From Candidatus Forterrea multitransposorum CG_2015-17_Forterrea_25_41 (GTDB taxonomy: Archaea; Iainarchaeota; Iainarchaeia; Iainarchaeales; CSSED10-239), in the NCBI GenBank assembly GCA_009392915.1, contig CP045477.1, forward strand, positions 192,001-256,000: a stretch of DNA of 64,000 nucleotides, read 5' to 3'. The notes under the pieces were generated by a model. It was not told the origin of the DNA. It ran no database searches and was given only the letters and a program-made list of their open reading frames with translations. This document shows, in pieces, positions 3,994-58,269 of the stretch. The translations under genes were made by a program, and so were the position numbers. Position 1 is the first letter of the stretch. Each line of letters opens with the position of its first letter.

Positions 3994-4005
3994 ATTTTAA
4001 AACCT

Positions 4006-38174: not shown

Positions 38175-38191
38175 AGGGGGTTAGTTTATTT

Positions 38192-41362: not shown

Positions 41363-44300
41363 ATGGTTAAAGATAAAAATAATTTAGGCTCAAATGAAAA
41401 CAATGAAAATAAACAAAATATTTTTTCAAGATTTTATAATTATCTTGAAGATAAATATTCTTCTTTATCAAACTGGCTTACAGAAAAAGGAATACCATTA
41501 AATAATTTAAATAATTATTTAGAGGAAAAAGGACTTCCTGCTTTTGCAATAGTTGCATCTATTTTATTATTATTAATCTTTATAATTGTTTTCTTAATTA
41601 TCTTTTCTTTTTCCAGTCAATCAACATTAATTTTTTCTGTTAAAGATTATTCTGGACTTTCAATCAATGATGCTTTTTTAAAAATTACAAATAGTTCAGG
41701 TAAGGAAATCTTTTCAGGAACTGTAAATGATACTGATGTTAAAAAATTAAAATTAAAATTAGGAGAATTATATTCTTTTAAATCAACTAAAGATGGATAT
41801 CCTGATTTTTCAAAATCAATAACTATTACTGATAAAGATCAAAAAGTACAAATTACTTTTTCAGAATCAATTGAGTATGGTATATTAAGAATAAAATTAA
41901 TAGATAGAGATAATAAAGGAATAATTACTTCAGGAACTGCGATCGCAAGATATTCAATTAATAATGCTCCTGAGTCTACAGAAAACATTGTAAATATTGC
42001 AAATGAACATTTTATTACTTTAGAAGTTCCAATGAATAAAGATATTGAACTTTTAGTTAGTGCAGATGGTTATGAAGATTTTAAAGAAACAAATTTTAGA
42101 ATAACTTTAGAAAATCAAGAAAAAGTAATTGAAATGGATATTTCTTCTTTATCTTTTGAAGGTAAAAGTCAAGTTACTTTTGTTGTTTTAGATACAGAAC
42201 AAAATCCAATTGATGGTGCTTTAGTAAGCATATATAATCTTGGAGATGAATTATTAGATTCAAAAAATACAATTGATGGAAGAGCTTTATCTTTTATTGA
42301 TAGTGGTTCTACAATATCTTATAAAGTTGAAAAAGAAGGTTATAGAACATTTGTAAGTGATCCTGAAGTTTCTTTTAGAATTACAAAATCTGAAATAACT
42401 TATAATGTTACTTTAGAAGAGGGTGGAAATTTTTTAGATGTGTTTGTAAAATCTGGTTCTAATTTTTTAGCTCTTGGAGATGTTGCAATTACTGTTTATG
42501 ATTTAAATAATAATATTATTAATTCTGGAAATACAGATGATTTAGGAAATTTAAAATTAACTGGTCTTTCTGATAAAGCACCAATTGTTGTAACTGCTTG
42601 TAAAGAAGATTTCCTTTGTGAAAATTTAACAGTAGATCTTTTAGAAAAAAGTTCAGTTGAGTTTACTTTAGAAAGAATAGATGTAACAAATAGTGCTATT
42701 CTGTCTGTTTTTGTTGTTGATGAAAAAAATTTACCGATCTCAAAAGCTTTTATAAAAATCTATCAATTACTTGAAGATGATAAAGAAGTTCCATACAACA
42801 CATCTCTTCAAACTGATCTTACAGGTTCTCTTTCAATACCTCTAAGAGTTGGAGATTCTTTTATAGTTTATTCATTAGTTGGAGAAGTTCAATATTTTGA
42901 AGAAATTACAATTGATGCTTTAAGAGAAAATAAAATAATTTTTGTAATGGATAATGCTTCTAAAATAATTAAATTAGATCTTTATGATGAAAATGGTTTT
43001 AAACTTACTTCAGGTTCTTTACTTGTAAAAACAAAAGATGGAACTGTTCTTTTTGATGGTAATTTATCTGAAACTGATCAAATAAGTTTTATTTCAGAAG
43101 GCTATAAAGATTTATATGCTGAATACACAGATGTTAATGGTAATAAATCTTCAATTAATTTTAATGCTGATGAATCTGAGTCAGATGGATATATAAGACT
43201 TGATTTTAATAAAGAAGTTAATTTAACAGATTATCCTGTAATTGAGTTTTCAGGAATTGTAGATTCTAAAGGAGTTAAATCAAATTTTGTAACAATAGGT
43301 AAAGAATATTATTTAATTTTTGATGTTTTATTCCCAGAAAATACTTATAAAGGACAAGTACATATTAGAGCTGGTGATGATACTCAAGTTGATGTTGAAG
43401 AAATGAGTTATGGTATAACTGGTTTTTCTGCAATGGATATTTATGATTTTAAATATGGTACAACATATAATAGTTCTCCTCTTCCAGGTTTAATGAATAT
43501 TGATCTTTTAAATGAAGGTTCTTCTCAAGTTTTAAATAAATGGCTTGAACTTAAATGGAATAGTGATCTTCCTTTAGGTAATAAACAAATCAAAGTAAAA
43601 ATAAATGTTATAGATGATTCTTATTCAAAATTAACTTTTAAATATAGAACTTTATTTGAAGAAAATAAATTATACTATAGAGATCCAGTTGACTCTTTAT
43701 TAAACCAAAGTTATTCTTCATCTCAAAAAGGTGCTTTATATGCAGATACAAAAGAAGTAAATATTGATGTTTATAATGTTCCTTTAGATTGTGAAGGTTC
43801 TCAATGTTTGTCATATACTTTTATTGATTCAAAAGGAAATGAATTTTCAAAAAATGATTTCTATGCTGTAAGAGATGAAACTTATTTTTTAAAAGTTAGT
43901 CTTTATTCTTTAGATAATAAACAATTAGATCTTTTAGCAGAAACTTCAAAAAGTTTCCCTTTAATTTCATTTGGTTCTTTTTCAGATAATCTTTATCAAA
44001 ATGAAATAATAAATGATAATTCTTTATTTGAAATTTCAAGAGATGGTTTTTTACTTTCTGAAAATTCTTTAAAAAATATTTATCTTTCATTTATCTCAAA
44101 AGATATTGGTGCTGCATATATTGATCTTAAAGCAACAGATGTTATTTTAGGAAATGAAATTTTAAACAATAGATTAAGTTTTAATGTTTATGATAAAAAA
44201 GAAATGAATGTTTTAGTTTCTCCAAGTAATTATGTTGATTATGGATCAAATTTTACTGTTGATGTTTTAGATTCAGTTTCTCTTGAACCTATTACAGATG

Positions 44301-47300
44301 CTTTTATTTCTTTTTATGATGTTAGAGATACTTTTATTTCTTCTTTAAAACCAAGTAATTCAAATGGAAGGAATGGAAAATATACTATTACAAATAATTT
44401 TAATACTTCAACTGTTAAAATGGTAGTTGAAAGATATGGTTATCTTCCTTATGAAACTGAAATTTATATTATTGATAATACTTTATTAAATGCAATTCCT
44501 TCAGAAATAATTTTTAATTTAGGTCTTGACCAAACAGCATCAACTTCAAATTTTAGTTTAGAAAACTTAGGTAATTATCAAGCAACAAATGTAAGGTTTG
44601 GAGAACCTATTTGGATTGAAGGTAGTGCTGGTATTTATCTTGAAGGAAGAGGTAATCCAATAATTAATAAAAACTCAACTCAAAATTATCAATTGTTACT
44701 TACAACAGAAAATGATGTTGAACTTAAAACAGCATATGCACATCTTCCAGTATATGCATCTGTAGGTCCTAGAGAAGTTACAAAAATATTAAATGTTAGA
44801 ATAAATAAAGGTTTAATGTTAAATGAATGTGTTGAAATTACTCCTTCTGAAGTTTCTTCTTTTGTTGGACTAAATGTTTCTTCAAATTATGCAGATCCTT
44901 TTAATACTCCTTTTGCAGATTATGATTATACTTCAAATACTTCAAATAATCCTATGCTTGCACCTTCTCAAAGTTATTCTAATTATGAAGAATATTTAAA
45001 TTCAAGTGGATATAACATTACTGATTCAACAGATAATGGTTATACTTACACAGATTCTAAAAATTATACTTATCATGCAACTTCTCCTGCTCTTAATTCT
45101 CAAATTACTGAAAACACAACTTATTTTACAATTAAAAATAATTGTTCTCAAGCTATAACTTTTAATCCTCAAGCAGTTTTAACTTCTTCATCATCAAATA
45201 ATAATTTAGAAGTTTCTCTTGCAAACATAACTGTTCTTCCAGGAGAAGAAAAAGTTTATGATGTTATTTTAAAAAATTCATCTGAACTTAAAAGAAAAAC
45301 AACATATACCTATAATGTTTTATGGCATAATAATTATTATTCAATAGCTCCTTCAGTTTTAAATGTTGATCTTTTAGATTTAAGTAGAGCTTTATGGGTT
45401 ATGCCACAACAAATAAATATTCCAATCTCTCAAGTACATCCTCAACAAGCTGCTGAAAATTATACTAGATTTTTTATTAAAAATATAGGTGCTGTTCCAA
45501 TAACTGATATACAAATAAGTCAGTATCCAAAAATGGTGTCTTCTAATATTAAAATAACTGAATATCCAAGACAAGTATCTGTTTTAGAACCAGGAAAAAC
45601 AATTCCTGTTGATTTAAAATTTTCAGTAAATATTAATAAATCTACATTAGATAATGCCTTTATACAAGTAACTGGTAAAGCTGTTGGTATTAGTGAACCA
45701 ATTACTTCAACAACACAATTAGTGTTTTCAATTTCTTCTCCAAATTGCTTAAAAGTAAGTAATAAAAATATTAATTTTGATTTAGAAGTTGGGGAAACAA
45801 GAGCAAGAAATATTACAATTACAAATCAATGTTCTGAACCTGTTACAATAGTTGGAATTGATAAAAAACAACAAGGATATTATCAAGCATATGGGGATAA
45901 TTCTTTTAGAATAACTCCTGCTTCTGGTAATCCAATAATTCCTGTTAACATGTCAAATTCTTATAGAATAGAGTTTACTGCAAATTCTTTAGGTGGTTCT
46001 CCAAAAACACCAATGATACTTCAAGGTAGATTAATGAATTCAGGTAATCCTGTAACTTCAGAAGAGGTTTTAGTTTCAATAACTATAGATGATATAATGG
46101 TTGGAGAAGAAGCTGAAAGAAATATTTCTATTTTATCTTCTCTTCCTTCTTGTGAAGATCCACAAAATATTAATTCATATAATAGACCATTAATTTCAAT
46201 TAAAGATTGTTCTGAAACTTCAGGATATTGTGATGGAGAATCTTCAGCTGAATTAATTTTAAAAAAAGTAAATGAACTTCAAAATGAAATTAAACAATTT
46301 TCTGCACAAACACAATCAAAAGTAATTGATACTGGTTGTACTCTTCAAGATGCATATAGTGGTTTTTGTAAAATATCTGAACTTGGTGGAGGAATTGATC
46401 CTGTTGAGTTTTCTTTCTTTATGCAAAATGATAATGTTACACCTGATTTAATTAAATCTATTTTAACAAAATCAAATTATTCTTTTAAAAATTATTTTGT
46501 TGAAACAAATATTTTTAATAAAGAAATTAAAACTATAAATCAATATTCTTCTTATGGGGTATATGCTGGTGGAAATAAAATATTTGTATCTCCTCACCTA
46601 TCAGGTTGTGGAAAATATACAGTAGAGATTGATGGTTATGTTGCTGCAAGTCCAGATTATATTTATCCTGAAAGAGCATATTATTATATTAATGTTGTAG
46701 AAAAAGATACTAACACTATTCATTGTGAGAAAAATATTGTAAATTATTTAAATTATCTTCCATGGGATCTTTCTTTTAATAAAAACCAAAGAGCAGGAAC
46801 TTGGCTTACTTTATTTACTGGTGATGAAAATTTATCAAAAGCTTTAATTAAAAGTGTGGGTAAGTTTAAGTCAGATGAAATTGATTTAAGATATGTTTAT
46901 AATAAAGATGTTTTATCTACAAGAAATAGTACTTTAAATGTTTCAACTGGAGAGATTTCTGAAAATAAAGAAGCTCTTGCAAAAATTTCTTTTAATGATA
47001 CTTCTTTAAGAAAAAGCTCTTCTCCAGAACAAATAGATATTACTTTAAATTCTCTTTATAATTCTCCTGAAGGTAAAACTTCTGAGTATGCTGTTAAAGA
47101 TTTTTCAAAAGTAATTTCTTCAATGATTTCAGATAATGATTATTCTGCAAAAGTTTGTATTTCTGAAGATAAAACATATATGCTTGTTTTAGATGTTATT
47201 TCAGCAGGAGATTTAACTTTTGTTGATAAAGAAGTAAGTCTTCCTTTAAAGGATGGAGCTTCATGTTCTTTATTAAAAGTTAAATCATCAGTTCCTGAAA

Positions 47301-49378
47301 CTTTAAAGATTACTTCTGATTCTTTAGAGTTTGCAAATATTGGTTTTAAGAAAAATAAAGATGATACTCTTCAAGAGTCATTAGATATTAGTGTTATTGC
47401 AAATAAAGATTCTAACTTTTATATGTGTGTAACTCCAAATTCAGAGACTGCTATCTCAAGTCTTGTTGATAAAAAAATAACTGTAACAGCAACAAGTATT
47501 TATTCTGCAAGTGGTAGTATTGGAAATAGAAGCACAACTTCAGAAGTAGCTTTCTCTTCATGTGCAATCACACCTGAAGATTATCTTTTAGGTATTTATT
47601 CAAATATTTTAACTGAAAATAATAAAGCTGAAGATGATAGAATCTTACCTCAAAATTATACAGCTATTGTAGATTGGGATAAACAATATAATCCTGAAGA
47701 AAAAGAAAAATTATGTTCAACTTTACAAAAGATTGTAAATAGTAAAAAGTATAATGGAGAACTTTTCTTTGATTATGAAGTTTTAGGTTGTGAGATTGAA
47801 GATTCTTCACAAGAAAGAGATTCAAGAATAAGTAAAGGATTACATAATGCTGGACAATATTTCTTTTCTTGTTCAGGAGCTTGTGGACTTTGTTATGGTC
47901 TTTCAGGACTTATAATGCCTACACAATTTGTAGGTGCAATTGTTGATTGTTTAGGTTTCTCTTGTTTATTACCTTCATTAAATATATTTGCATCAAATCT
48001 ATCTAATGGAGAAGGTGGAATATCTTGGCTTTTAGATGAATTTTTTGGATTATTATTAAATGATGATGTTAGTTTCTTTTCAAATATTACAAGTGAGATT
48101 GAAACATGGGTAAGTGGTGTTTTAGGTGTTGGAGGAGCTGCAACAAGTGGAGCTTTAAAAGCTAATGCTGCTTCTGCTGCTGTACCTTTAGATCAAGTTA
48201 CTCAAGACTTAGTTTCACAATCTAGTTATGATCCTACAACACAACAAATATTAGATGATTTAGCAAATCCATCAACAACACCTGCTCCTGTAAATCCATC
48301 AACAACTTCTGGTGTAATTAATGGTTCTACTGAATTAAAAAATTTAAATAGTCAATTAAATAATTTAAATAGATATTTAAGTGGTAATGACAATATTAAA
48401 TTACAAACATTTTCAAACCCACAAGAAGCAGGTAGATTTAGTGATATCCTTAGAAAAATGAATCAAACATCTGGATCTAACTTTGATAAATTGAGATCTT
48501 TATCTACTCAAGAGTTTGATGATTTTGTAAATATTCTTGAAAAACAAAATTTTACAGGTAAAAATAGTCATTTATTCAAAAAAGACTTACTTATTAAAAG
48601 ATTAAAAGATGCTAAAGTAAATGATTTCAAATCAGTTTCAGCTGCAACTTCTTCAAGTGCAGCAGCTACATCTAGTAGTGCAGCTTCAGTTGCTGATGAT
48701 TTCTATGATTACCCTAAAGCAGATTATGATCAAGCAATTAAAAATTTTGATAATGATATTAAAATGCTTGATGATTCAATAAGTAATCTTGAAAATCAAA
48801 AAGCAGCAATTGAAACTAATGCAAAAAGATCATCTGCAAATCCTAAAAAAGCACTTCGTTATAAATCAAAAGTTGATGCTCAAATAAAAGCAATAGATAG
48901 TCAACTTGATGAACTTAAAAAAAGTAAAGATGCTCTTTCAAGTGTTAAATCTAAATTTGCTTCAGCTAAAAATGTAAATGGTACTTATAAAGTTCCAACT
49001 TCTGCAATTGATGATTTATCAAATAATATTCCAAAACAAGCAAAACTTAGCAAATTATCTAAATTTGCAAAAATTAAAGGTGTTGCAAAAAGCTTTGGAA
49101 GAGGCCTTCTTTGTGGTGCTACAGGAAATGCTGCAGGAATATATTCTTTAAAAGAAGAAGGTAAAACAGGACTTAATAAATCAATAGAGTTTTTAAGTAA
49201 AAATGATTTTGAGAAAAATATATTCTATGTTTCAGAAGTTGATATGTTATCTCCAGAAAATGATCAAGAATACGAAACAAGATATACAATTAATATAAAA
49301 CCTTATATCTCTCAAGATCAAAGTATTATTTCTTCAATTCCTACAAAAAGAATTGATTCTTGTACTATAGAAGAATAA
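41363..49378 (+). CDS. Giant (2671 aa) membrane-anchored surface protein: conserved N-terminal cytoplasmic motif + single TM, multiple prealbumin/CarboxypepD_reg-like beta-sandwich repeats, Cys-rich hydrophobic segment, Ala/Ser-rich coiled-coil C-terminal region
   Basis: Uninterrupted 8-kb ORF; TM at aa ~60-85 (AFAIVASILLLLIFIIVFLIIFSF); repeated ~80-aa units of type GxAxIxIYxLxDxxxxxxxxTDxxGxxxI; C-terminal coiled coil (DDSISNLENQKAAIETNAKR...). Confidence 0.75.
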   Translation: MVKDKNNLGSNENNENKQNIFSRFYNYLEDKYSSLSNWLTEKGIPLNNLNNYLEEKGLPAFAIVASILLLLIFIIVFLIIFSFSSQSTLIFSVKDYSGLSINDAFLKITNSSGKEIFSGTVNDTDVKKLKLKLGELYSFKSTKDGYPDFSKSITITDKDQKVQITFSESIEYGILRIKLIDRDNKGIITSGTAIARYSINNAPESTENIVNIANEHFITLEVPMNKDIELLVSADGYEDFKETNFRITLENQEKVIEMDISSLSFEGKSQVTFVVLDTEQNPIDGALVSIYNLGDELLDSKNTIDGRALSFIDSGSTISYKVEKEGYRTFVSDPEVSFRITKSEITYNVTLEEGGNFLDVFVKSGSNFLALGDVAITVYDLNNNIINSGNTDDLGNLKLTGLSDKAPIVVTACKEDFLCENLTVDLLEKSSVEFTLERIDVTNSAILSVFVVDEKNLPISKAFIKIYQLLEDDKEVPYNTSLQTDLTGSLSIPLRVGDSFIVYSLVGEVQYFEEITIDALRENKIIFVMDNASKIIKLDLYDENGFKLTSGSLLVKTKDGTVLFDGNLSETDQISFISEGYKDLYAEYTDVNGNKSSINFNADESESDGYIRLDFNKEVNLTDYPVIEFSGIVDSKGVKSNFVTIGKEYYLIFDVLFPENTYKGQVHIRAGDDTQVDVEEMSYGITGFSAMDIYDFKYGTTYNSSPLPGLMNIDLLNEGSSQVLNKWLELKWNSDLPLGNKQIKVKINVIDDSYSKLTFKYRTLFEENKLYYRDPVDSLLNQSYSSSQKGALYADTKEVNIDVYNVPLDCEGSQCLSYTFIDSKGNEFSKNDFYAVRDETYFLKVSLYSLDNKQLDLLAETSKSFPLISFGSFSDNLYQNEIINDNSLFEISRDGFLLSENSLKNIYLSFISKDIGAAYIDLKATDVILGNEILNNRLSFNVYDKKEMNVLVSPSNYVDYGSNFTVDVLDSVSLEPITDAFISFYDVRDTFISSLKPSNSNGRNGKYTITNNFNTSTVKMVVERYGYLPYETEIYIIDNTLLNAIPSEIIFNLGLDQTASTSNFSLENLGNYQATNVRFGEPIWIEGSAGIYLEGRGNPIINKNSTQNYQLLLTTENDVELKTAYAHLPVYASVGPREVTKILNVRINKGLMLNECVEITPSEVSSFVGLNVSSNYADPFNTPFADYDYTSNTSNNPMLAPSQSYSNYEEYLNSSGYNITDSTDNGYTYTDSKNYTYHATSPALNSQITENTTYFTIKNNCSQAITFNPQAVLTSSSSNNNLEVSLANITVLPGEEKVYDVILKNSSELKRKTTYTYNVLWHNNYYSIAPSVLNVDLLDLSRALWVMPQQINIPISQVHPQQAAENYTRFFIKNIGAVPITDIQISQYPKMVSSNIKITEYPRQVSVLEPGKTIPVDLKFSVNINKSTLDNAFIQVTGKAVGISEPITSTTQLVFSISSPNCLKVSNKNINFDLEVGETRARNITITNQCSEPVTIVGIDKKQQGYYQAYGDNSFRITPASGNPIIPVNMSNSYRIEFTANSLGGSPKTPMILQGRLMNSGNPVTSEEVLVSITIDDIMVGEEAERNISILSSLPSCEDPQNINSYNRPLISIKDCSETSGYCDGESSAELILKKVNELQNEIKQFSAQTQSKVIDTGCTLQDAYSGFCKISELGGGIDPVEFSFFMQNDNVTPDLIKSILTKSNYSFKNYFVETNIFNKEIKTINQYSSYGVYAGGNKIFVSPHLSGCGKYTVEIDGYVAASPDYIYPERAYYYINVVEKDTNTIHCEKNIVNYLNYLPWDLSFNKNQRAGTWLTLFTGDENLSKALIKSVGKFKSDEIDLRYVYNKDVLSTRNSTLNVSTGEISENKEALAKISFNDTSLRKSSSPEQIDITLNSLYNSPEGKTSEYAVKDFSKVISSMISDNDYSAKVCISEDKTYMLVLDVISAGDLTFVDKEVSLPLKDGASCSLLKVKSSVPETLKITSDSLEFANIGFKKNKDDTLQESLDISVIANKDSNFYMCVTPNSETAISSLVDKKITVTATSIYSASGSIGNRSTTSEVAFSSCAITPEDYLLGIYSNILTENNKAEDDRILPQNYTAIVDWDKQYNPEEKEKLCSTLQKIVNSKKYNGELFFDYEVLGCEIEDSSQERDSRISKGLHNAGQYFFSCSGACGLCYGLSGLIMPTQFVGAIVDCLGFSCLLPSLNIFASNLSNGEGGISWLLDEFFGLLLNDDVSFFSNITSEIETWVSGVLGVGGAATSGALKANAASAAVPLDQVTQDLVSQSSYDPTTQQILDDLANPSTTPAPVNPSTTSGVINGSTELKNLNSQLNNLNRYLSGNDNIKLQTFSNPQEAGRFSDILRKMNQTSGSNFDKLRSLSTQEFDDFVNILEKQNFTGKNSHLFKKDLLIKRLKDAKVNDFKSVSAATSSSAAATSSSAASVADDFYDYPKADYDQAIKNFDNDIKMLDDSISNLENQKAAIETNAKRSSANPKKALRYKSKVDAQIKAIDSQLDELKKSKDALSSVKSKFASAKNVNGTYKVPTSAIDDLSNNIPKQAKLSKLSKFAKIKGVAKSFGRGLLCGATGNAAGIYSLKEEGKTGLNKSIEFLSKNDFEKNIFYVSEVDMLSPENDQEYETRYTINIKPYISQDQSIISSIPTKRIDSCTIEE

Positions 49379-49487: not shown

Positions 49488-51167
49488 ATGTTAAGAAATA
49501 AAAAAGGATTTAATTTATTTACTGCTTTAATCTCATTGATGCTTTTATCAATAACTCTAGTTTTTATTTTTAATATGGTTCAAACTGAAGAAAATTATTT
49601 AGAATTAATAAATAATCAATCTCAAGCTTCTGACCTCTTAACAATTGCAGATATTTCAAGAGCTGATGCTTTTAATAATTTTGTTGTTTCTTTTAGAGAA
49701 CAATGGATGTCTTTTAGAAGTGATCCTCGTTCTGAAATCATACTTAAAAGAAAAGATATTATGCTTGATTGGGATGGTTTTGTAGATTATTTTGCAGATT
49801 ATATTTTCTTTGATAATAGTTTTGAAAATTATTTTGCAGATAATATGGTTAGATCTTTAAATTATACAAATCCACCAACAGGTTATGCAATAAATGTTCC
49901 TAATTATTCTCGTGATGATTTATCTAGTATTATTAAAACAGCTTTTCTTGAAGCTGGAGATGATAAAATAAAAGTTGTAAGTTGTGAAAGAGAAGATGAG
50001 GTTTGTTTAGGTACACTTTATTTTACAATTGATACTAGAAAACTTTCTGCACAAGAATATGAAAAACTTCCAATGATAACTGTTAAAAGAAATGTTGATG
50101 ATGAAGTTATTCAAAGACCAGTTTTTGCAAAAAGAGCATACAGGATATATATTCCCTGGAGAGGTTTTCAAGCTTTAAGGACTGTTAGAAATTTTGCACT
50201 TGATGCTGATCTTGAAAAAGGAGAAACAACAGCTCAAATTATTGAATATTCAAAAGATTCAAGAGGTTTTTTAAACCCCTATATTCATTATACTCTCAAT
50301 AGTGCAAAACTTGGTGTTTGTGATATTGATAGTTGTGCTCTAAGAAAAGATTTATTTAAAACTGTTGAGTTTAATGGGTTTACTGGAGATGCATGTTCTA
50401 ATCCGCCTGGAGTTAGTAATGTTTCTGACAATGGAGGAATTACTGGATCTTTTACTGGAGAAGTTTCTCTTTCTAATAATCATAGTTACAATATTCAAGA
50501 TATAGATGGAACTGTAAAACCTATATATAATGATTTAGTTAAAACAACTATAGAAAACAATTTAGAATATAGAACTGATATAATACATGCAGGAAATAAT
50601 TTGCCATCAATCTCTTCTTCTTCAATTTTAGATGATGAATGTCAAATGTCTTTAACAACTGGAAATTTTTCAATATGTGATATACGTGTAAGACTTCCTT
50701 CTCCAAAAGTTACAAAAGAAGTTATTTCTGTAGGAACTGTTTCAGAATCTTTAAGTAGTTTATCTCAAGTTTCATTCAATCCTTCTGGTAGTTTTAATAA
50801 AGCTTCAAACTTAAGTCTCTCTATTGATGATGATTTAAATATTAATGTTTTTGATCAAGAAAGTACTATTCCTAATGAAACTGATAATCAATATCTATCA
50901 TGTACAACAATTGACTATATTGATTTATTATTTAAATTTGAAGAACAAGATGAAAAGTATATTTTTTCTCAAGATTCTAAAAATATTTATATTTTAATTC
51001 AAGATAGATTTTCAGATTATACTTTCTTTAATTCATTTGGAAGCGTTCCTAACTTTAGTGGAGGATATTTTCAAAAAAGAGAACTTCCTTCATTTACAGG
51101 AGGACAAGGTTGGACTTGTAAAAGTTATGAAGCAAATGAAGATGATGCAGCATGTGTTGCAGGTTAA
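49488..51167 (+). CDS. Pilin-like secreted protein (class III signal peptide), 559 aa
   Basis: N-term MLRNKKG|FNLFTALISLMLLSITLVFIFNMV; remainder hydrophilic with scattered Cys pairs. Confidence 0.6.
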   Translation: MLRNKKGFNLFTALISLMLLSITLVFIFNMVQTEENYLELINNQSQASDLLTIADISRADAFNNFVVSFREQWMSFRSDPRSEIILKRKDIMLDWDGFVDYFADYIFFDNSFENYFADNMVRSLNYTNPPTGYAINVPNYSRDDLSSIIKTAFLEAGDDKIKVVSCEREDEVCLGTLYFTIDTRKLSAQEYEKLPMITVKRNVDDEVIQRPVFAKRAYRIYIPWRGFQALRTVRNFALDADLEKGETTAQIIEYSKDSRGFLNPYIHYTLNSAKLGVCDIDSCALRKDLFKTVEFNGFTGDACSNPPGVSNVSDNGGITGSFTGEVSLSNNHSYNIQDIDGTVKPIYNDLVKTTIENNLEYRTDIIHAGNNLPSISSSSILDDECQMSLTTGNFSICDIRVRLPSPKVTKEVISVGTVSESLSSLSQVSFNPSGSFNKASNLSLSIDDDLNINVFDQESTIPNETDNQYLSCTTIDYIDLLFKFEEQDEKYIFSQDSKNIYILIQDRFSDYTFFNSFGSVPNFSGGYFQKRELPSFTGGQGWTCKSYEANEDDAACVAG

Positions 51168-51297: not shown

Positions 51298-54200
51298 ATG
51301 GGTCTTAGATCTTTTTACTTTAAACAAGAAGAAAAATATTTTAATTTTCTAGACAGGATGGAGAAAAAAGGAATTAATCTATACAAAATAATAGATCCTT
51401 TAGAAAAGAATGGTATACCTACTTTTTTAGTATTTAATATATTTATTCTACTTTTAATTTTATTTTTAGTTTATTTATTTGTTGGACAAACTCCATTAAC
51501 TGATGAAAACTACACTTTAACTTTTGTAAATTCTCAAGACCAGCCAATCTCAAATCAAGCAATTGAAATTCTTCTTAATAACAATAGAAAGATTTTAACA
51601 ACTAATGAATTTGGAATTTCAGAAATTACTGATGTTGAAATTAAATCTTATGATTTAGAAATAAGTAGTGAAAAGTATACTCTTGAAAATCCATTAACTT
51701 TAGATTTTAAAGAAAACACTTCTCATAAAATATTTTTAAAATCAAAAACTTCTGTTTTATCAAAAACTATATATTTTAAAACAAATAATGAATTATATAA
51801 TTCTCCATTAACAATTTCAAATATTTCTTGTTCAAATAATTCTCTTTATACAAAAAATAATCTTCAAACAAATGATGGTTCTTTAACTTTAGATGATATT
51901 CCTACAGATTGTGGATATTTAGAAGTTGCTATTGAATCTTCAACAATTAATGCTGTTGGTTCTTTAGAAGTTTCAGAAGACTCTCCTTCTGGAGATATTG
52001 ATTTAAGTTTTGAAGGTGTTGAAACTGGAAGTGCAAAAATAATTATTCTTGATAAAGATTTAAAAGTGCCTATTCAAAACATAAGTATTTCTATTCTTAA
52101 TAATCAAAGTCAAATTGTAACTTCTTCAATAACAAATGCAAATGGTATAGCATCTTTTGAAGAAATAAATGTTGGAACATATAATCTTTTAATCTATGAT
52201 GAAGAAGAAAGATACAAGCCAGTAACTGAAAATGAAAGTTTAGAACTTGTAGTATATGATTCTGTTTTAGAAGAAAAAGAAGTTCTTTTAGAAAAAGCAT
52301 TCATTGGTAAATTAAATTATAAAATTATTGATACTCAAAGTAAAGAAGCTATTGAAAATGTAGCTGTAACAATATACAAAGGAAATGATATTTTAAAAAC
52401 AATTAATTCAAATAAAGAAGGCGATGTTTCTTTTGGTGTTGAAGAAAATATTTCTTATAAAGTTTTATTTAATCATCCTAATTATATAATAAGAACTGAA
52501 AATAATCAAAGAATAAGTGAATCTATTAAACAAATTGCCTTAACTCCAATAACAAATGAAAATTTAAGAAGTTTAGTTATTACTGTTGTTGATGATTTTG
52601 CAAAACCTGTTGATTTTGCAACCATAAGATTATGGGATGATACTGAAGATATTATTCTTAGAACAATAACAGCTGATATTTATGGTAAAGCTGTTTTTAC
52701 AAATTTAGATTTAGGTAAAGAATATAGACTTGATGCAACTAAAGATCAATTTACTTCAAATCCTACAAATCCTTTTAGAATCTCAGAACAAGAAATAACT
52801 GAAGAAACTATAAAGATGAGTATAGGTGAAGGAACTTTTAATATTAATTTAGTTTCTGAGTATGGAGAGTTCTATCAAGGAAATGTATATGTTTATGATG
52901 CAACAAATGATACTTTAATGCAAGATAAAACCACAACAACAAACCAAGATGGTTTTACAATAATAAAGATTAGAGCTGATAAACAAATTTATTTTGTTAT
53001 TGATAATTTAGATTCTAAATTTATAACTCCAAAGTATTCAACAAATGCAAATGAAATAAATACTTTAAATTTTACAATTCCAGGAACTGTTGGGCAAACA
53101 TCTGGTATTGAATTTTTAGGTTTTTATAATGCTGAAGGAGAAAAAATAAATTCAGTGGCTGCAGGTATGCAAGTTACTGCTAAATATTTATTAAATGTTA
53201 CAAAAGAATATTCTAAAGCAGTTGCACATATAAGAACTGGAGAAGTTCCAAGTCCTTTATGTTCTTCAAACACATATAATGTTTTAGAAGATTTAATTTT
53301 TATAAAAGATGTACGTTATGCAAAATCTGATAAGATCGGTTCATTAACTTTTACTCCATGTAATGGAGAAGGTATTGATTTTTCAAATAAAACTTTAAGA
53401 AATGCAAAATGGTTTAATTTAACTTTAAATAATCCAATGCAAGGAAGTTATTTAATTGAAGCAGATGTTGTTGTTTTAGATACAGCTTTTGCAAATCAAG
53501 CTTTAAACTATAGAGCAGAGTTTTATCAAGGTTCAAGTATTATAAGATCACCTGTTGATTCTTCTTATAGTTCTTCAACAAGTAAACAAAATTTATATGC
53601 TCAAGCAAAACAAGTTCAATTATTTTTAGGAACTCAAAATCAATGTACTTCACTTATGTGTTATGCATTTATTATGACAAATACACAAAATAATTTATCT
53701 AGAAATATAATTGATAGTTATAAAGCTAAATTAAATAATGATTATAGACTTTCATTTAGTTTAAATGTTTTAGATGGAAAAATTGCACCAAACTCAATGC
53801 TTGTAATCTCTTCAGGTAGTTCTGTTGATTTAGATGGTTATTCTATTACTTCAGGAACTGGTTCTCTTTTAGTTGGAGAGGATTATGATGGAATTGATTT
53901 AGGTTCTTTAGTTTCAAATGATTTAATAACTGGAGAGCTTGCTTTTAAAGTAATAGATGATGTTTCTGATGTTTTAGACTTTTCAATAGTTTCTAATGGA
54001 GAAGTTGTATTCTCTAAAAAAATATATCTTGAAATTGATCCTGCAAAAGAAATGTTTGTAGAGTTTGTTCCAAGAAAAATTGTTCCTTTTGTTTCAAATG
54101 ATTTACTTGTTGTTGTAACTGATGATTCTAATAATTTTATTTCAAATGCAATTGTTGAACTTTCAATTAATGATAGAAGTTTAACTGTAGGTTCAACTAA

Positions 54201-57200
54201 TCAAGAAGGATTATTTGGTCATGTAATTCCAGCAACTGATCTTGGAGATGTTTTAAAGATTGTTGTAAAGAAAGATGATTATAAAACAGTTAAAACAGAA
54301 ATTGTAATTGATGATAAATTAATCACAACAATTCCTGAAAAAATTGATTTAACAATTGATTCTTCAAAATCAATAAGAGAAGTTTATAATTTTAGTTTAT
54401 ATAATGAATCTTATGTTCCTTTAACAATTGTTTCTGCATCAGCATTTACTGATAATGAATTTGTTGATCTTGATTTAGGTATTGAAGAAAATATCATAAA
54501 TGGTGTTTCTCAAAATGATATTTCTCTAACAGCAACATTAACAGATAAAGGTATTAATCTTTATAATCAACAAACAATTAATACAGAAGTTGCAATTAAA
54601 ATTAAAAGTGAAGAAATGAATAAAACTTGGGTTATTACAGTTCCATTAACTGTTAGAATAGTTTTAGGAAATTCTCTTGATTCTCTTGAATGTTTAAAAG
54701 TTCTACCTCTTGAAGGAACAATTAGAGCTAAATCTCAAGAAACAAAAACTTTAGATTTTACTTTAGAAAACACTTGTACTTCAAAGAATGTTTCTGTTGA
54801 TTTAGGAACTATTAATGCAATGGTTGATTGGGGTAATGAATCTGAAACTGGACTTTTATCAATTGTTGTTTCTGGTAAAGAATATATTTTAGAAAACTTA
54901 ACTGAAACTGAAATATTATCAACTCTTTTAAAGAAATCAAAAACAACTTTACAATTAAAGTTTAAAGCGCATAAAATAGTTTCAGATGTTAAAATACCAA
55001 TTATTTATTTTACTTCAAAGAAAGGAAATATTAATGGTGTTGATGAAGTTAAAACAAGACTTCCCTTAAAAACAATTATTAATGATTATTCAGAATGTAT
55101 TGAGATCCCAAGAGAGACAATTCCTGCTCTTGCATGTAATTGGTATTCTGGACTTAATAACTATGGTAATTATTATGGTGGAGTAAACCAAGGAGGAGCT
55201 TTCAATAATCCTTATTATGGTGGAAATAATTTTAATGCAACATATAATCCTAATAACCAATTTAATTCTAGAAATTACTATCAACAAGGTTCTGGTTATG
55301 TTACACAACAACAAGGTGTTTTTAATCCAAATTATAATTTAGTGGGACAAACAAATTATACAGGAAATCAAAATTCTGTGTTTAACCCTTATAATTTCCC
55401 TTCCTCACAATATCAAAATACTTTTGGAAATTATGATAGTTATAATTTTACATCAGGTTATCCTCAAGGTAACTATGGAAACATGGGTTTTACAAATAAC
55501 ATGAATTGTCCAACAAGACCATTTTATATTAAAAATAATTGTTCTGAAGCTGTTGATATTAAACTTGATTCAATATATGGTTTAACAATTGCAACAGATA
55601 AAGAATTTACAATAGAACCTGGAGATACAGAAGAGATTAGTGTTTTAGGTGGAGAGTCTATGGGTACTTTTAAAATACCTGTAAATGCAAAAGCATCTCT
55701 TGCATCTAATGAAAATTATTCAACAATTGGAGATGTTTTATTTTCTTTAACATTACCAATTAGTTTTATGTCTTCAAATTGTATACAAGTAACTCCTCAA
55801 AAATTAGATTTTTCAAATATTATTGATCCTAACTATCAACTTGTAAAAGTAATTAATACTTGCTTTGCACAAGGATACAGAATAGTTGAAGTTAATTATC
55901 TTGATTTAATTTCACTTGACTTTGATGGTGTATCTTTCTTAAATGTAGGAGATATGCAAGGAAGAATTCAACCAATTAAAGTTGATACTTTAACAAATAC
56001 AACTACAAATGAACCAATGGAAGTTTGGGAAATTGCATTAAGAAGAAATCCTGAAATTGAAAATACTAAGTCTGTAAAAGAGTATATGAATAAATATTCT
56101 GATTATTCTTTAGCTGCTGGTGTTATTTCTTCATTTAGAAAAATATTAATTGATGTTGAAGACGCAGTTAACTTAAAGTTTTCTTTACAAGTTGGACTTC
56201 AACCACCAACAGGACAAGCTTCACTTATCTATAATAATATAGGTATGGAACTTAAGGATAATTTCCAATGGTTAATTTTAGATAATCCTGATAATATAGG
56301 TCTTTTAAAAGATTTATTTGGTGATGAAGCTATTAGTGATGAAGAAATTTCATTTATTGATACTTCTGTAAAATTAACATATACCCTTGATCCTAATAAC
56401 AATGCAGTTATTATTAATGTTCCTGAAGGAGAACTTGCTGCAGATAAATTCACACAAATTGATCAAGACCCTACAAGTAAAAGATGTTTCTATGGATATG
56501 TTAAAGATTTCCCTATAACTGGTATTGTAGATACTTCATATATACAAAACTCTGGTAAATATTATTTAAATAATAAATATGATCCATTAGATGTAAGTCT
56601 TGAATTTATTACTAGAAATAAAAATATCTTTAAATTATGTTTTGAAAGACCAGTTGAATCATTTGATAATATTTTAGCTACAAATGATAATTACAATATC
56701 TTAGATTTATTTAAAACAAGTAAAGATTCTCTTACAAACCAAAACTTTGAGATTTGGAGAATTTTAGATACTACAAATAAAGGTAAATACCAAGGTAGTA
56801 CTTTAATTGGTGTAAAAGCTGATGTTTCAACAAAAGAAGTTGGCTCTAAAGAAGAGGGTGACTCTGGAAAAACTGATCCTTCTCAAACAACAGATGATTC
56901 TTTAGTTTGTCTTGCTCCTGACCTTTCAACAAATCTTGGACATACAGGTTCTAATGTTTATTCTCAATATGGATTTGATAAAATATTACTTGATTACTTA
57001 CCAGAAGATATTACAGATTCTTCTTGTGAAGATTATTTCTGTGATCAAGAACAATTCTATAATTTCTTAACAAAGAAAGCAGATAAATTAAAAGAAGTTA
57101 CTTCAAATAGTAATTATATAAATATTAATGGTATTTATTTTGAAAAAGAAAATAATACTATTAAAGAATCAAAAGTAAAAGTAGATCTTTGTGCAAACGG

Positions 57201-58269
57201 CGTTTGTGATGGCTTTGATGTTTCTGGTAAAGAAACTTTAAATGATTATATAAATCAAGCAAATAAAGTTTTAAATGCTGTTCCAGCAGACTTAAAGAAA
57301 ATAACAATCATTAAGACTAAAGGTTTAACTACTAATGGAAATAAAATTGTAACAATTGGTGATTATCAATATACAACTGTTGATTATTTCTTAGAAAATT
57401 ATGATTCTTTTGAGAACAAAGCAATAGTTTATGCAAACATGGATGTATACTTTGGATCTTCTCCTCAAGTATTCAGTTCTAACCTTAAGAAATTTTCTGG
57501 TAGTTCTGAAGATTTAAATAAAAAAATCTTAGCAAACTTTAATAATACTTTAACAAGTAACTATACAATTGAGTATGCTGAGGCTGTAAATATTTCAAAA
57601 CCAGGAACTTATACAACAGTTATTTCTCTTGAAAATATAGATTCTCAAAATAAAAGAAAAATAAATTTAACAATAGGTTCTAAAGTTTCTGAGATTAGTG
57701 AAGAATATAGTAAAAATATTTTATTTACATATCCAATTAATCCTGAATATACAATGAAAGAAAAGAGTGATAAATATAATGCTCCTTTCATTAAGAATAA
57801 AAATTATACTTTAATTGATTATCCTTCAGAAATTATACAAGATGGATATATCTTTAAGTTTGAGGATATGGCAAATTATGATTTTATTGATTCAAGACCA
57901 TTTTATTTCAATAAACCATATAGTTTTAAGATTATTGAAACTAATGAAAATAATACAGAGCTTGATTTAATAGAAAATAAAGCAAGTTTATTCTTACTTA
58001 AAGATAGAACAAATAAAAAGATTAGTTTGTATTCAAAACCACAAATTACAAGTCAAGATACAAAGAATAACACTGTCTTTTTAAAAACAACTACTAATAA
58101 TAATTATATGATATATAATTTACAAATGAATAATGTTTTACCAAAATTAACATATTCATCAATGAAAGATGTATTTAATGAAATTAAAAACGAGAATGTA
58201 TGTTTCAATATAACTGAAGGAACAACTCCTGAACTTATGTTGTGGCATAATCCTGAAAAATTTAAATGA
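51298..58269 (+). CDS. Giant (2323 aa) membrane-anchored surface protein, paralogous N-terminus to neighbours, prealbumin-like repeats, internal N/Q/Y/G-rich low-complexity segment
   Basis: Uninterrupted 7-kb ORF; N-term MGLRSFYFKQEEKYFNFLDRMEKKGINL...EKNGIPTFLVFNIFILLLILFLVYLF; many VxVxDxxxxPIxNAxI...TNxxGxxxF repeats; aa ~1283-1400 N/Y/G/Q-rich. Confidence 0.75.
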   Translation: MGLRSFYFKQEEKYFNFLDRMEKKGINLYKIIDPLEKNGIPTFLVFNIFILLLILFLVYLFVGQTPLTDENYTLTFVNSQDQPISNQAIEILLNNNRKILTTNEFGISEITDVEIKSYDLEISSEKYTLENPLTLDFKENTSHKIFLKSKTSVLSKTIYFKTNNELYNSPLTISNISCSNNSLYTKNNLQTNDGSLTLDDIPTDCGYLEVAIESSTINAVGSLEVSEDSPSGDIDLSFEGVETGSAKIIILDKDLKVPIQNISISILNNQSQIVTSSITNANGIASFEEINVGTYNLLIYDEEERYKPVTENESLELVVYDSVLEEKEVLLEKAFIGKLNYKIIDTQSKEAIENVAVTIYKGNDILKTINSNKEGDVSFGVEENISYKVLFNHPNYIIRTENNQRISESIKQIALTPITNENLRSLVITVVDDFAKPVDFATIRLWDDTEDIILRTITADIYGKAVFTNLDLGKEYRLDATKDQFTSNPTNPFRISEQEITEETIKMSIGEGTFNINLVSEYGEFYQGNVYVYDATNDTLMQDKTTTTNQDGFTIIKIRADKQIYFVIDNLDSKFITPKYSTNANEINTLNFTIPGTVGQTSGIEFLGFYNAEGEKINSVAAGMQVTAKYLLNVTKEYSKAVAHIRTGEVPSPLCSSNTYNVLEDLIFIKDVRYAKSDKIGSLTFTPCNGEGIDFSNKTLRNAKWFNLTLNNPMQGSYLIEADVVVLDTAFANQALNYRAEFYQGSSIIRSPVDSSYSSSTSKQNLYAQAKQVQLFLGTQNQCTSLMCYAFIMTNTQNNLSRNIIDSYKAKLNNDYRLSFSLNVLDGKIAPNSMLVISSGSSVDLDGYSITSGTGSLLVGEDYDGIDLGSLVSNDLITGELAFKVIDDVSDVLDFSIVSNGEVVFSKKIYLEIDPAKEMFVEFVPRKIVPFVSNDLLVVVTDDSNNFISNAIVELSINDRSLTVGSTNQEGLFGHVIPATDLGDVLKIVVKKDDYKTVKTEIVIDDKLITTIPEKIDLTIDSSKSIREVYNFSLYNESYVPLTIVSASAFTDNEFVDLDLGIEENIINGVSQNDISLTATLTDKGINLYNQQTINTEVAIKIKSEEMNKTWVITVPLTVRIVLGNSLDSLECLKVLPLEGTIRAKSQETKTLDFTLENTCTSKNVSVDLGTINAMVDWGNESETGLLSIVVSGKEYILENLTETEILSTLLKKSKTTLQLKFKAHKIVSDVKIPIIYFTSKKGNINGVDEVKTRLPLKTIINDYSECIEIPRETIPALACNWYSGLNNYGNYYGGVNQGGAFNNPYYGGNNFNATYNPNNQFNSRNYYQQGSGYVTQQQGVFNPNYNLVGQTNYTGNQNSVFNPYNFPSSQYQNTFGNYDSYNFTSGYPQGNYGNMGFTNNMNCPTRPFYIKNNCSEAVDIKLDSIYGLTIATDKEFTIEPGDTEEISVLGGESMGTFKIPVNAKASLASNENYSTIGDVLFSLTLPISFMSSNCIQVTPQKLDFSNIIDPNYQLVKVINTCFAQGYRIVEVNYLDLISLDFDGVSFLNVGDMQGRIQPIKVDTLTNTTTNEPMEVWEIALRRNPEIENTKSVKEYMNKYSDYSLAAGVISSFRKILIDVEDAVNLKFSLQVGLQPPTGQASLIYNNIGMELKDNFQWLILDNPDNIGLLKDLFGDEAISDEEISFIDTSVKLTYTLDPNNNAVIINVPEGELAADKFTQIDQDPTSKRCFYGYVKDFPITGIVDTSYIQNSGKYYLNNKYDPLDVSLEFITRNKNIFKLCFERPVESFDNILATNDNYNILDLFKTSKDSLTNQNFEIWRILDTTNKGKYQGSTLIGVKADVSTKEVGSKEEGDSGKTDPSQTTDDSLVCLAPDLSTNLGHTGSNVYSQYGFDKILLDYLPEDITDSSCEDYFCDQEQFYNFLTKKADKLKEVTSNSNYININGIYFEKENNTIKESKVKVDLCANGVCDGFDVSGKETLNDYINQANKVLNAVPADLKKITIIKTKGLTTNGNKIVTIGDYQYTTVDYFLENYDSFENKAIVYANMDVYFGSSPQVFSSNLKKFSGSSEDLNKKILANFNNTLTSNYTIEYAEAVNISKPGTYTTVISLENIDSQNKRKINLTIGSKVSEISEEYSKNILFTYPINPEYTMKEKSDKYNAPFIKNKNYTLIDYPSEIIQDGYIFKFEDMANYDFIDSRPFYFNKPYSFKIIETNENNTELDLIENKASLFLLKDRTNKKISLYSKPQITSQDTKNNTVFLKTTTNNNYMIYNLQMNNVLPKLTYSSMKDVFNEIKNENVCFNITEGTTPELMLWHNPEKFK

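Follow-up and report, generated by a model that had tools for sequence, protein, structure and literature searches.

The three giant proteins encoded in the window, by which we mean the whole 64,000-nucleotide stretch of archaeal DNA analyzed here, each begin with a ~45-residue helix-loop-helix followed by one membrane helix, and this unit is real and strongly conserved. We regard the helix-loop-helix module as the N-terminal hallmark of one family of giant, paralogous surface proteins that is specific to DPANN archaea. The prevailing view is that these archaea live attached to other cells, and almost every protein of their contact surfaces is annotated as 'hypothetical'. The ~45-residue module is a specific tag (60-109 bits against the family) that finds giant surface proteins in Iainarchaeota and Micrarchaeota; these are present as several paralogues per genome and amount to ~4% of a 0.84-Mb genome. 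Through the same tag a conserved operon comes into view, one of whose products is a large pilin-like protein, and the tag offers a way to study how the DPANN cell-surface apparatus is built. The giants otherwise evolve fast, and the module, which they conserve best, is therefore a natural entry point to their biology.

The module in the three giants

The consensus of the motif is MGLKDFYYsLEDKYYaFLDkLdeK(G)IPVYKvvDPI[DE]Kv(G)IPSF, after which come ~22 hydrophobic residues. Each of the three giant ORFs (G1, G2 and G3) opens with it, and a regular expression and a six-frame scan found it nowhere else in the window (Table 1). A prior examination of the letters alone (the sequence-only reading) had described a shared N-terminal motif in these proteins, and upon translation its strings were recovered in place. 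Its pattern Y-x-x-L-E-D-K-Y...K-G-I-P was said to be common to all three; the motif is, but the first KGIP loop is missing in G3. The membrane helix said to follow directly was found as one strong hydrophobic segment per giant (KD 3.1-3.6 over 19 residues). In G1 an 18-residue low-complexity lead precedes the module, and K/E/D-rich leads of varying length are also seen in G1-type orthologues. G1 is an exact match to the NCBI protein 'hypothetical protein GW835_02530 [archaeon]' and has the full-length orthologues P0026, P0058, P0070, P0098 and P0125, whereas those of G3 are P0035, P0092 and P0120. The short G3 module variant recurs in these three and in P0083.

Table 1. Positions in the window of the three giants, their N-terminal elements and the pilin-like gene
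Feature	Coordinates	Strand	Evidence
Giant 1 (G1), 2671 aa, G1-type paralogue	41363..49378	+	ORF
G1 low-complexity lead, aa 1-18, predicted disordered	41363..41416	+	AF2 pLDDT 61-67, no secondary structure
G1 module, aa 19-61: helix 20-41, KGIP loop, helix 46-55, KGLP loop	41417..41545	+	28.9 bits; AF2 pLDDT 87-91
G1 hydrophobic signal-anchor helix (predicted), aa 62-84	41546..41614	+	KD 3.59 at aa 63-81; AF2 helix 60-84
559-aa protein, type IV pilin-like N-terminus (MLRNKKGF, then NLFTALISLMLL)	49488..51167	+	conserved between G1 and G2 orthologues
Giant 2 (G2), 2323 aa, G2-type paralogue; CarboxypepD_reg/SpaA/Big_1-like beta-sandwich ectodomain	51298..58269	+	
G2 module, aa 1-43: helix 2-23, GINLY loop, helix 29-37, GIPT loop	51298..51426	+	65.6 bits; AF2 pLDDT 84-88
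G2 signal-anchor helix (predicted), aa 44-62	51427..51483	+	KD 3.11; AF2 helix 42-62
Giant 3 (G3), 1867 aa, G3-type paralogue	58297..63900	+	ORF
G3 module, aa 1-37, short variant without first KGIP loop	58297..58407	+	34.9 bits
G3 signal-anchor helix (predicted), aa 38-56	58408..58464	+	KD 3.46

The genome has a GC content of ~25%, and K, E, N and Y are abundant in the N-termini of the giants, both of which would speak for a resemblance that arose by chance or from low-complexity K/E/Y composition in AT-rich DNA; the sequence-only reading had named the latter as grounds for dropping the motif. An HMM was built of the soluble part only, from 69 outside sequences each <50% identical to any giant of the window. 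This outside-only HMM gave the three giants 29-66 bits (Table 1), with E values of 9e-20 for G2, 4e-10 for G3 and 3e-8 for G1, whereas the runner-up among 666 six-frame ORFs had 6.2 bits and no score above 12 bits came from 3000 shuffles that preserved the composition of the three N-termini. Given that the scores are far above those of the shuffles, the motif is not an effect of K/E/Y composition. Moreover, an exhaustive profile search of 1.84 billion cluster representatives gave 985 matches to the module at E<=1e-3, of which 291 reached E<=1e-10, and the matches include MAGs whose names record 47-57% GC. The leave-out HMM and the profile search thus refute the artefact, to which we give practically no credence.

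Conservation and predicted fold

The module is the most conserved part of the giants. Within orthologue groups its identity was 64-76% versus 34-42% for the rest of the protein, and information content, at 2.61 bits per column in the module, dropped to 1.41 across the TM and to 0.93 beyond it. Module conservation is hence twice that of the ectodomain, with charged and aromatic residues invariant: among 154 members E11 was present in all 154, P41 in 151, Y7 in 150, F43 in 143 and D19 in 141. These invariant charged and aromatic residues fit a constrained interaction surface. The G1-, G2- and G3-type variants of the module are each conserved across genomes.

In layout, the module consists of an amphipathic helix with an invariant Y-x-x-x-E and an EDKYY core, after which come two 14-residue repeats of the form 'helix end, (G)IP, aromatic'. 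AF2 predicted the same order for G2 and G1 (helix, GIP loop, short helix, GIP loop and TM helix) with pLDDT values of 83.8 and 82.8, respectively. The first beta-sandwich domain starts ~10 residues past the hydrophobic helix, and the ectodomain comprises 1000-3000 residues.

Pfam searches of G1-G3 returned beta-sandwich families only. The ectodomain families are CarboxypepD_reg, Big_1, SpaA, fn3 and FG-GAP, and matches to CarboxypepD_reg (PF13620) exceeded the gathering threshold of 32.3 in G2 (73.9 bits) and G3 (62.8 bits); these lie in the ectodomain and not in the module. For the G1 ectodomain Pfam gave only a sub-threshold bMG3 match. NCBI names relatives of the giants 'carboxypeptidase regulatory-like domain-containing protein'.

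Size and distribution of the family

The sequence-only reading had asked whether matches to the motif would always be followed by one TM and a giant ectodomain. Among the 150 matches listed of the 985, the module was at or near residue 1 in every case, usually with a single TM after it and then 1000-3250 more residues. The arrangement held for most members but not for all of them: 79 of 95 full-length members had one TM directly behind the module, and 92 of those 150 proteins were at least 1000 residues long. At 80 genome loci the module always began a long ORF, most of which were >2000 residues and extended beyond the flank examined. Hydrophobicity gave no C-terminal anchor in full-length members.

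All 86 confirmed genome matches and all named cluster members belonged to Iainarchaeota/Diapherotrites, Micrarchaeota or unclassified archaea. The genome scan used a nine-sequence alignment and the single pattern EDKYYx[FIL][LFM]D, and the taxonomic picture is therefore biased towards canonical variants. No viral contigs carrying the module were found. Word-indexed protein searches with the short motif returned only 2, 4 and 4 matches, whereas the exhaustive profile search succeeded. When the TM was included in a word-indexed search, hydrophobic words swamped the candidate list.

The sequence-only reading had also taken the motif as a possible common signal for targeting, insertion or partner binding and allowed that it might prove to sit on unrelated small proteins. 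None of the latter was seen among the matches listed, and all 103 attached ectodomains fell into one BLAST-connected family, a result that speaks against a signal portable to unrelated cargo. G1, G2 and G3 share the module because of common descent: they are paralogues whose ectodomains form one family. G2 and G3 are 22.7% identical over residues 1-1275, and comparison of G1 with G2 orthologues gave E values of 1e-8 to 1e-19. No unrelated protein was seen to carry the module, so we read it as the mark of a family and not as a sorting signal that can be moved to other cargo.

Comparison with known signals

The sequence-only reading did not recognize the motif as a known sorting signal and set it apart from Sec, Tat, class III pilin and PGF-CTERM signals; that it matches no known signal family was borne out. 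Searches of Pfam, NCBIfam and the PDB gave no relative of the module, the Pfam and NCBIfam output being only noise (Ish1 at 0.039, ODV-E18, AmaP and TraL), and we found no description of the motif or family in the literature. A family model for the module is merited, since Pfam and NCBIfam have none. The three modules and the consensus lack the twin arginines of Tat signals; the module is N-terminal, unlike PGF-CTERM, and the C-termini of G1-G3 are without a hydrophobic segment. No match above noise was obtained for the HeH/Ish1 model (PF10281).

Class III signals have a short basic leader whose end, directly upstream of the hydrophobic helix, is a [KR][GA] cleavage site. Like the module, they place a conserved motif where an N-terminal hydrophobic helix meets the cytoplasm, and the giants have a conserved pilin-like neighbor. 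However, the module has no obligatory [KR][GA] site and matches no pilin model, its leader is long (~45 residues), acidic (net charge -1.8) and predicted to fold, and its helix is preceded by F or P. The module is not a class III signal because a Gly before the hydrophobic stretch is dispensable. The YSIRK-G/S and KxYKxGKxW motifs are conserved in the n-regions of the export signals of giant Gram-positive adhesins and are tied to secretion site or route. Like the module they are family-specific conserved motifs on very large surface proteins, but they are bacterial, short and contained within cleaved signal peptides, and they are unrelated in sequence, with no Pfam or NCBIfam match to the module. 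The type VII secretion signal YxxxD/E is C-terminal. We rejected Y7-x-x-x-E11 as such a signal, as it is N-terminal and no T7SS components are present.

Another parallel is ESPR (extended signal peptide region, PF13018) of type V secretion, a conserved N-terminal extension on very large surface proteins that is thought to act on translocation or anchoring (PMC8151025). ESPR is likewise short, adjoins a hydrophobic export segment and is phylogenetically restricted. It is, however, bacterial, ~25 residues long, basic and part of a cleaved Sec signal peptide on outer-membrane cargo, whereas the module is archaeal, ~45 residues long and acidic, has two predicted helices and a TM-length helix next to them, and shows no sequence match: PF13018 did not match the three N-termini at E<=10 or the consensus and family members at E<=0.1.

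The SPEARE proteins of Nanohaloarchaeota are giants with adhesion-type ectodomains whose copies together take up ~4% of the genome; they have a C-terminal anchor, a type III restriction-enzyme-like cytoplasmic domain, a serine protease and laminin-G (PMC6642349). The proteins described here resemble them as DPANN proteins that are membrane-anchored, have a variable ectodomain and are most conserved in a small intracellular part. They differ in their single N-terminal TM, in a 45-residue helical hairpin without an enzyme domain and in CarboxypepD_reg/Big_1-type repeats, G1-G3 having only beta-sandwich families. SLP_Mh, the micrarchaeal S-layer protein of ~100 kDa, has the S-layer domain PF05123 (bioRxiv 10.1101/2021.04.28.441871), which matched none of the giants. 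Finally, generic type II signal-anchors share with the giants a short cytoplasmic N-terminus with an excess of K/R on its flank of the helix, a single and (in our proteins, probably) uncleaved helix and a large exoplasmic domain. They have no conserved cytoplasmic sequence, whereas in the giants the predicted cytoplasmic part is the most conserved of >2000 residues.

Topology and role of the module

We infer, with a probability of roughly 0.6, that the helix is a type II signal-anchor that stays uncleaved and that the module caps it on the cytoplasmic side, where a shared partner binds; topology, non-cleavage and partner binding are all part of this inferred picture. The hydrophobic helix would be inserted co-translationally and stay uncleaved, while the folded cap and the lysines flanking the helix would remain cytoplasmic, set the N-in/C-out orientation and, in the case of the cap, keep the giant membrane-bound. 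Through its conserved charged and aromatic face the cap could bind a factor common to all paralogues, either insertion machinery or the N-termini of co-encoded giants, and the cluster's four giants might thereby assemble with its pilin-like protein into one surface apparatus. The cap bears on how archaeal proteins of >250 kDa are inserted and retained in the membrane and on possible inward signaling of contact. The N-in orientation is suggested by the K/R bias (1.73 K+R per 15 residues before the helix versus 0.67 after it) and by the nature of the ectodomain. Against it stand the net acidic module and the long, very hydrophobic helix, which alone would favor N-out. Against partner binding stands the homology of all carriers, and a partner-free structural or topogenic role would also explain the conservation. 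In that case the N-terminus would simply have been inherited, as a folded cytoplasmic plug that orients and holds the giant with no specific partner. The alignment of G2 with G3 over 1275 residues, the similarity of G1 to G2 orthologues, the single BLAST component of all 103 ectodomains and the failure to find a universal neighboring partner speak for such a plug, which we nevertheless consider somewhat improbable: a generic plug would require neither the invariance of E11, D19, D33, Y7, Y14 and Y29 nor as much as 2.6 bits per column, the TM itself is poorly conserved and each of the three paralogue-specific variants is kept across genomes.

Cleavage would give other outcomes. If the module were an ESPR-like extension of a cleavable signal peptide, its 45 residues would modulate translocation of the very large passenger, and after signal peptidase had removed them, the giants would either be set free or depend on other proteins to hold them. 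As with ESPR (PMC8151025), a conserved N-terminal extension adjoins a hydrophobic stretch, only on very large exported proteins; the giants have no other membrane anchor, the region past the helix is rich in G/S/T/P/A and 121 of 140 tails contain small-x-small, although this pattern is unspecific. We think this distinctly unlikely given an uncharged stretch with a median of 27 residues and KD >3, which resembles a TM anchor more closely than it does an h-region, the presence of A-x-A in only 10 of the 140 tails, the first beta-sandwich so close to the helix and the differences from ESPR in charge, length, predicted folding and sequence model noted above. Far less probable still is that a prepilin-type peptidase cuts off the module on the cytoplasmic side of the membrane and that the giants then join the neighboring pilin-like protein in a fiber via their hydrophobic N-terminal helices. 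This reading draws upon the conserved neighbor whose N-terminus resembles that of type IV pilins, upon the conserved (G)IPSF located exactly at the cytoplasmic edge of the helix and upon other class-III-like genes in the window. However, the leader is acidic and 45 residues long, no pilin model matches the giants and the window contains no peptidase or assembly ATPase. Moreover, Gly was present in 87 of 154 members at the first loop and is optional at the second; as many members have no Gly ahead of the helix, they lack a [KR][GA] cleavage site.

Gene cluster and neighbors

The full cluster has the order G1, the 559-residue pilin-like protein, G2, G3, a 964-residue protein and a fourth giant (G4), and makes up ~3.9% of the longest contig. 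The order G1, pilin-like protein, G2 is kept across genomes at 22-27% identity, and G2 orthologues in other Iainarchaeota (E 1e-104 to 1e-126) lie directly downstream of the pilin-like gene. Of 82 loci, 18 encode a member of the pilin-like family; a giant follows it directly in every case, and at loci L006, L007, L009 and L013 it lies between two giants. An N-terminus of the [KR][GA]-F-[TN]-L-F-T-A-L type was present in 16 of the 18 family members. Pfam gave no match to the 559-residue protein, and the NCBIfam model pilin_ComGF matched residues 1-51 of 11 of 16 members weakly (best E 3.7e-5, 16 bits versus a cut-off of 80).

A more speculative and, in our judgment, unlikely reading gives the module a docking role in a so far unrecognized system for biogenesis or coupling that is specific to DPANN archaea. 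The four caps, each a conserved variant typical of its paralogue, would bind one another or a dedicated factor in the cytoplasm or membrane and so assemble a pilin-associated multi-giant organelle for attachment to host cells. If true, a unit would contain >10,000 residues and host contact might be relayed to the cytoplasm.

Aside from the pilin-like protein, no universally co-located partner gene was found in the neighborhoods of module loci. A 111-residue membrane protein encoded upstream of G1 is clade-restricted (8 of 20 G1-type loci), and other neighbors are syntenic housekeeping genes such as those for a Ski2-like helicase (8 loci) and a metallo-beta-lactamase (6 loci). LemA, PEP synthase and DUF2207 are also encoded upstream of G1. 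In contrast to the giants, the 964-residue protein of the cluster has an ordinary, cleavable-looking signal peptide.

Composition does not explain the N-terminal motif

The sequence-only reading had claimed that three giant ORFs (G1, G2 and G3), which are co-directional and occupy the window from 41363 to its end, share an N-terminal motif (Y-x-x-L-E-D-K-Y ... K-G-I-P) followed by a transmembrane (TM) segment. The motif strings were recovered exactly in the translations, and a regular expression run on the six-frame translation of the window placed the motif solely at the three giant N-termini. To rule out composition effects, we used a leave-out HMM of the soluble part (TM omitted) built from 69 outside sequences, each <50% identical to any window giant. 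This HMM gave 65.6 bits for G2, 34.9 for G3 and 28.9 for G1, versus 6.2 bits for the next best of 666 six-frame ORFs and a maximum of 12 bits for 3000 residue shuffles of the three N-termini. Hence, neither chance nor low complexity accounts for the motif. It belongs to a new, specific and widespread N-terminal module of ~45 residues.

The consensus of 154 sequences is MGLKDFYYsLEDKYYaFLDkLdeK(G)IPVYKvvDPI[DE]Kv(G)IPSF(P), then ~22 hydrophobic residues. E11 is invariant (154/154), followed in conservation by P41 (151), Y7 (150), F43 (143), D19 (141), D33 (138) and Y29 (137). Information content is highest in the module (2.61 bits per column), lower in the hydrophobic helix (1.41) and lowest beyond it (0.93). 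Residue 2 is Gly in 75 of 132 members and A or S in 27 more (codons 51301-51303 in G2 and 58300-58302 in G3); this applies alike to members with the invariant Glu at residue 11 (56 sequences) and at residue 15 (36 sequences). Conservation of Met-Gly at the start suggests that the N-terminus is processed or that its first residues are constrained, whereas G1-type proteins have long acidic or basic leads instead.

AlphaFold2, run with family alignments for G2 and for G1, to which the flagged positions belong (mean pLDDT 83.8 and 82.8), predicted the same two-helix architecture for both: helix 1 (residues 2-23 in G2; 20-41 in G1, behind a disordered lead at 1-19 that is absent from G2), loop 1 (GINLY; KGIP), helix 2 (29-37; 46-55), loop 2 (GIPT; KGLP) and a long helix (42-62; 60-84). 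Helix 1 is amphipathic (hydrophobic moment 0.40), with L3, F6, Y7, L10, Y14, F17, L18 and L21 on one face and conserved acidic residues opposite. A 14-residue repeat (AFLDKLDEKGIP / KIVDPIDKVGIP) lies within the module; the module profile scored 22.5 against itself at offset 14 versus at most 14.5 at other offsets, and this comparison also gave a weaker 7-residue periodicity.

Distribution of the module

An exhaustive search of 1.84 billion cluster representatives with a four-sequence profile returned 985 proteins at E<=1e-3, of which 291 reached E<=1e-10 (best E 1e-26). The N-terminal placement held throughout the 150 matches listed, all at or near residue 1, a few of them behind low-complexity leads. 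Among those listed, only P0027 has TM segments ahead of the module; in this metagenomic protein of 1290 aa the module is at residues 120-178 behind three extra hydrophobic/TM segments, which reflects either a fusion or a start that was called wrongly. Lengths were at least 1000 aa in 92 of the 150 (maximum 3251 aa), and the short proteins came from short contigs.

In a scan of GTDB species-representative genomes for the single peptide pattern EDKYYx[FIL][LFM]D, 86 loci were confirmed, none of them bacterial. By name 27 were Iainarchaeum/Diapherotrites, 16 Micrarchaeota, two copies in the complete genome of archaeon GW2011_AR10 and one 'Nanobdellati archaeon', the remainder being '(uncultured) archaeon'. 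Even with one pattern, ~16 of ~63 assemblies had at least two copies. The ORF that begins with the module is long at every locus, in most cases >2000 aa and running off the 6-kb flank; the shortest complete ones were of 413 and 900 aa. Thirty exact look-ups returned archaeal names only, the product names being 'hypothetical protein' or 'carboxypeptidase regulatory-like domain-containing protein', and no module protein was found in IMG/VR. As far as sampled, the module is restricted to Iainarchaeota and Micrarchaeota.

Topology and possible roles of the module

A TM segment had been claimed after the motif, and G1, G2 and G3 each have one strong hydrophobic segment there (KD 3.1-3.6). A single strong segment was likewise found in 79 of 95 full-length relatives. 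No C-terminal anchor was found in G1, G2 or G3; G1 has a Cys-rich, moderately hydrophobic stretch and an S/A/K-rich tail, and the matching region of its orthologue P0026 passes the TM threshold twice. K+R per 15 residues falls from 1.73 ahead of the helix to 0.67 behind it. The median length of the uncharged stretch is 27 residues, and the module is acidic (net charge -1.8). The first beta-strand of the ectodomain lies ~10 residues past the helix. Ectodomain matches were to CarboxypepD_reg, SpaA, SdrD_B, Big_1, bMG3, fn3 and FG-GAP, all typical extracellular beta-sandwich domains. The place of the module in these giant beta-sandwich proteins is fixed, ahead of one hydrophobic helix.

How long and hydrophobic the helix is, the K/R bias around it, the extracellular type of the ectodomains and the lack of another anchor argue that the helix would be an uncleaved type II signal-anchor. 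The module cap would remain in the cytoplasm, and its invariant charged and aromatic surface may mediate an interaction common to the paralogues. One main rival is a cleaved leader resembling ESPR (the extended signal peptide region of type V secretion), a conserved 25-residue extension that precedes the signal peptide in bacterial surface proteins of very large size and affects the translocation or anchoring step (PMC8151025). The other, a purely topogenic plug, would involve no partner. A common targeting, insertion or partner-binding signal, as first proposed, is plausible with one qualification: the module is not a portable signal on unrelated cargo. It was inherited as the N-terminus of a single protein family and is constrained far more strongly than the remainder of these proteins.

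In function the module comes closest to ESPR and to the SPEARE proteins of Nanohaloarchaeota, giant membrane-anchored adhesion proteins in which the small intracellular portion is the most conserved (PMC6642349). Membership tests ruled out that the module belongs to either, and the micrarchaeal S-layer protein is a family distinct from the giants. Window sequences, consensus sequences and full-length relatives gave no Pfam-A or NCBIfam match to the module, and no description of it was found in the literature. The feature is real and constitutes a sequence family that has not been described, of a general kind already known: giant surface proteins with a conserved signal-anchor or N-terminal extension. 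The value of the module for DPANN cell biology is moderate to high, because it marks a surface apparatus that is large, conserved and as yet without annotation, and is a small, tractable experimental target.

Paralogy and the conserved gene cluster

Sequence comparison identifies the giants as paralogues in a conserved cluster. G2 and G3 are 22.7% identical across residues 1-1275; G1 gave no direct BLASTP match to either and is related to the G2 orthologues of other genomes (E 1e-8 to 1e-19). All 103 ectodomains of at least 400 aa form a single BLAST component. Each paralogue type has orthologues of nearly equal length in other genomes (P0026, 2677 aa, for G1; P0004, 2321 aa, for G2; P0035, 1862 aa, for G3) and keeps its own module variant. 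No stretch is better conserved within orthologue groups than the module (identity 0.64-0.76 versus 0.34-0.42 for the rest).

Just beyond the window end the source contig encodes a 964-aa protein and a fourth giant, G4. The six-gene cluster spans ~32.5 kb, ~3.9% of the longest contig with these proteins (839.6 kb). NCBI names proteins of the window 'hypothetical protein GW835_02515 to 02530 [archaeon]'.

The cluster with its pilin-like protein, the 559-aa ORF, is conserved. This family, which has no Pfam match, occurs in 18 of 82 loci, each time with a giant as the next gene downstream; in loci L006, L007, L009 and L013 giants flank it on both sides. On its downstream side stands the G2 orthologue (E 1e-104 to 1e-126); the giant on the upstream side gave matches to residues 1324-2201 of G1. 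The N-terminus, [KR][GA]F[TN]LFTAL[VL][AS]F[VI]LI, is type IV prepilin-like, and weak matches to NCBIfam pilin_ComGF cover residues 1-51 in 11 of 16 members (best E 3.7e-5, below cut-off).

Features of the giant cluster and its surroundings
Feature	Position	Strand	Length (aa)	Remarks
Three consecutive ORFs	155-6414	-	1102, 176, 802	archaeal class-III-like N-termini
Form II/III RuBisCO large subunit	6740-8188			E 1e-90
Intein-containing ORF	20402-22924	-	840	Intein_splicing, LAGLIDADG_3 homing endonuclease
Two secreted-looking proteins	37755-39550		139, 452	Sec-type signal peptides; upstream of giant cluster
154-aa protein	39853-40317		154	precedes 111-aa protein
Small membrane protein	40858-41193		111	several hydrophobic segments; directly upstream of G1
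G1	41363-49378		2671	
G1 Cys-rich stretch	~47840-47992			aa ~2160-2210; YFFSCSGACGLCYGLSGLI…AIVDCLGFSCLLPSLNIFA; KD 1.3-1.7
G1 tail	47993-49375		~460	C-terminal; coiled-coil-like in appearance
559-aa ORF	49488-51167		559	between G1 and G2
G2	51298-58269		2323	
G3	58297-63900		1867	
964-aa protein and G4	L085 (source-contig locus) 15642-25604		964, 2466	after G3; 964-aa protein: ordinary, cleavable-looking signal peptide (…SIPVSA/ELGDE); G4: degenerate module MSFKDAWQNFLTKIDNRIPIKKITGPLDKKNPLTSF, then TM, 32.9 bits

Window setting

The window is AT-rich (GC 22-33%) and its gene content is archaeal and DPANN-like, including form II/III RuBisCO, NurA, an XPD-type helicase, the intein-containing ORF, PEP synthase, LemA and DUF2207. 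Form II/III RuBisCO is typical of DPANN nucleotide salvage, and the UniRef name here is 'RuBisCO long chain, Form II/III, uncultured Nanobdellati archaeon'. The 90% clusters of window proteins also hold members from 'Candidatus ainarchaeum sp.' (Iainarchaeota).

In 8 of 20 loci the 111-aa membrane protein is the immediate upstream neighbour of a G1-type giant; in 6 loci it is preceded by the 154-aa protein, which has no Pfam match and a C-terminus that looks winged-helix-like by eye. The secreted-looking proteins also lack a Pfam match; in another module locus, L103, their homologues (~455 aa) form three tandem copies in the same relative place. In another clade G1 directly follows LemA, PEP synthase and DUF2207, which in this window are 7-13 kb upstream. 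The ORFs at the window start (N-termini MNQKGV/TSLFSGIAILF, MFLRKEKGA/ANLFSYFLYIF and MKRLNQRGA/SEILSYILVIF) look like a second, separate pilin-like adhesion operon; two have Laminin_G_3 domains and one a Gly_rich_2 domain.
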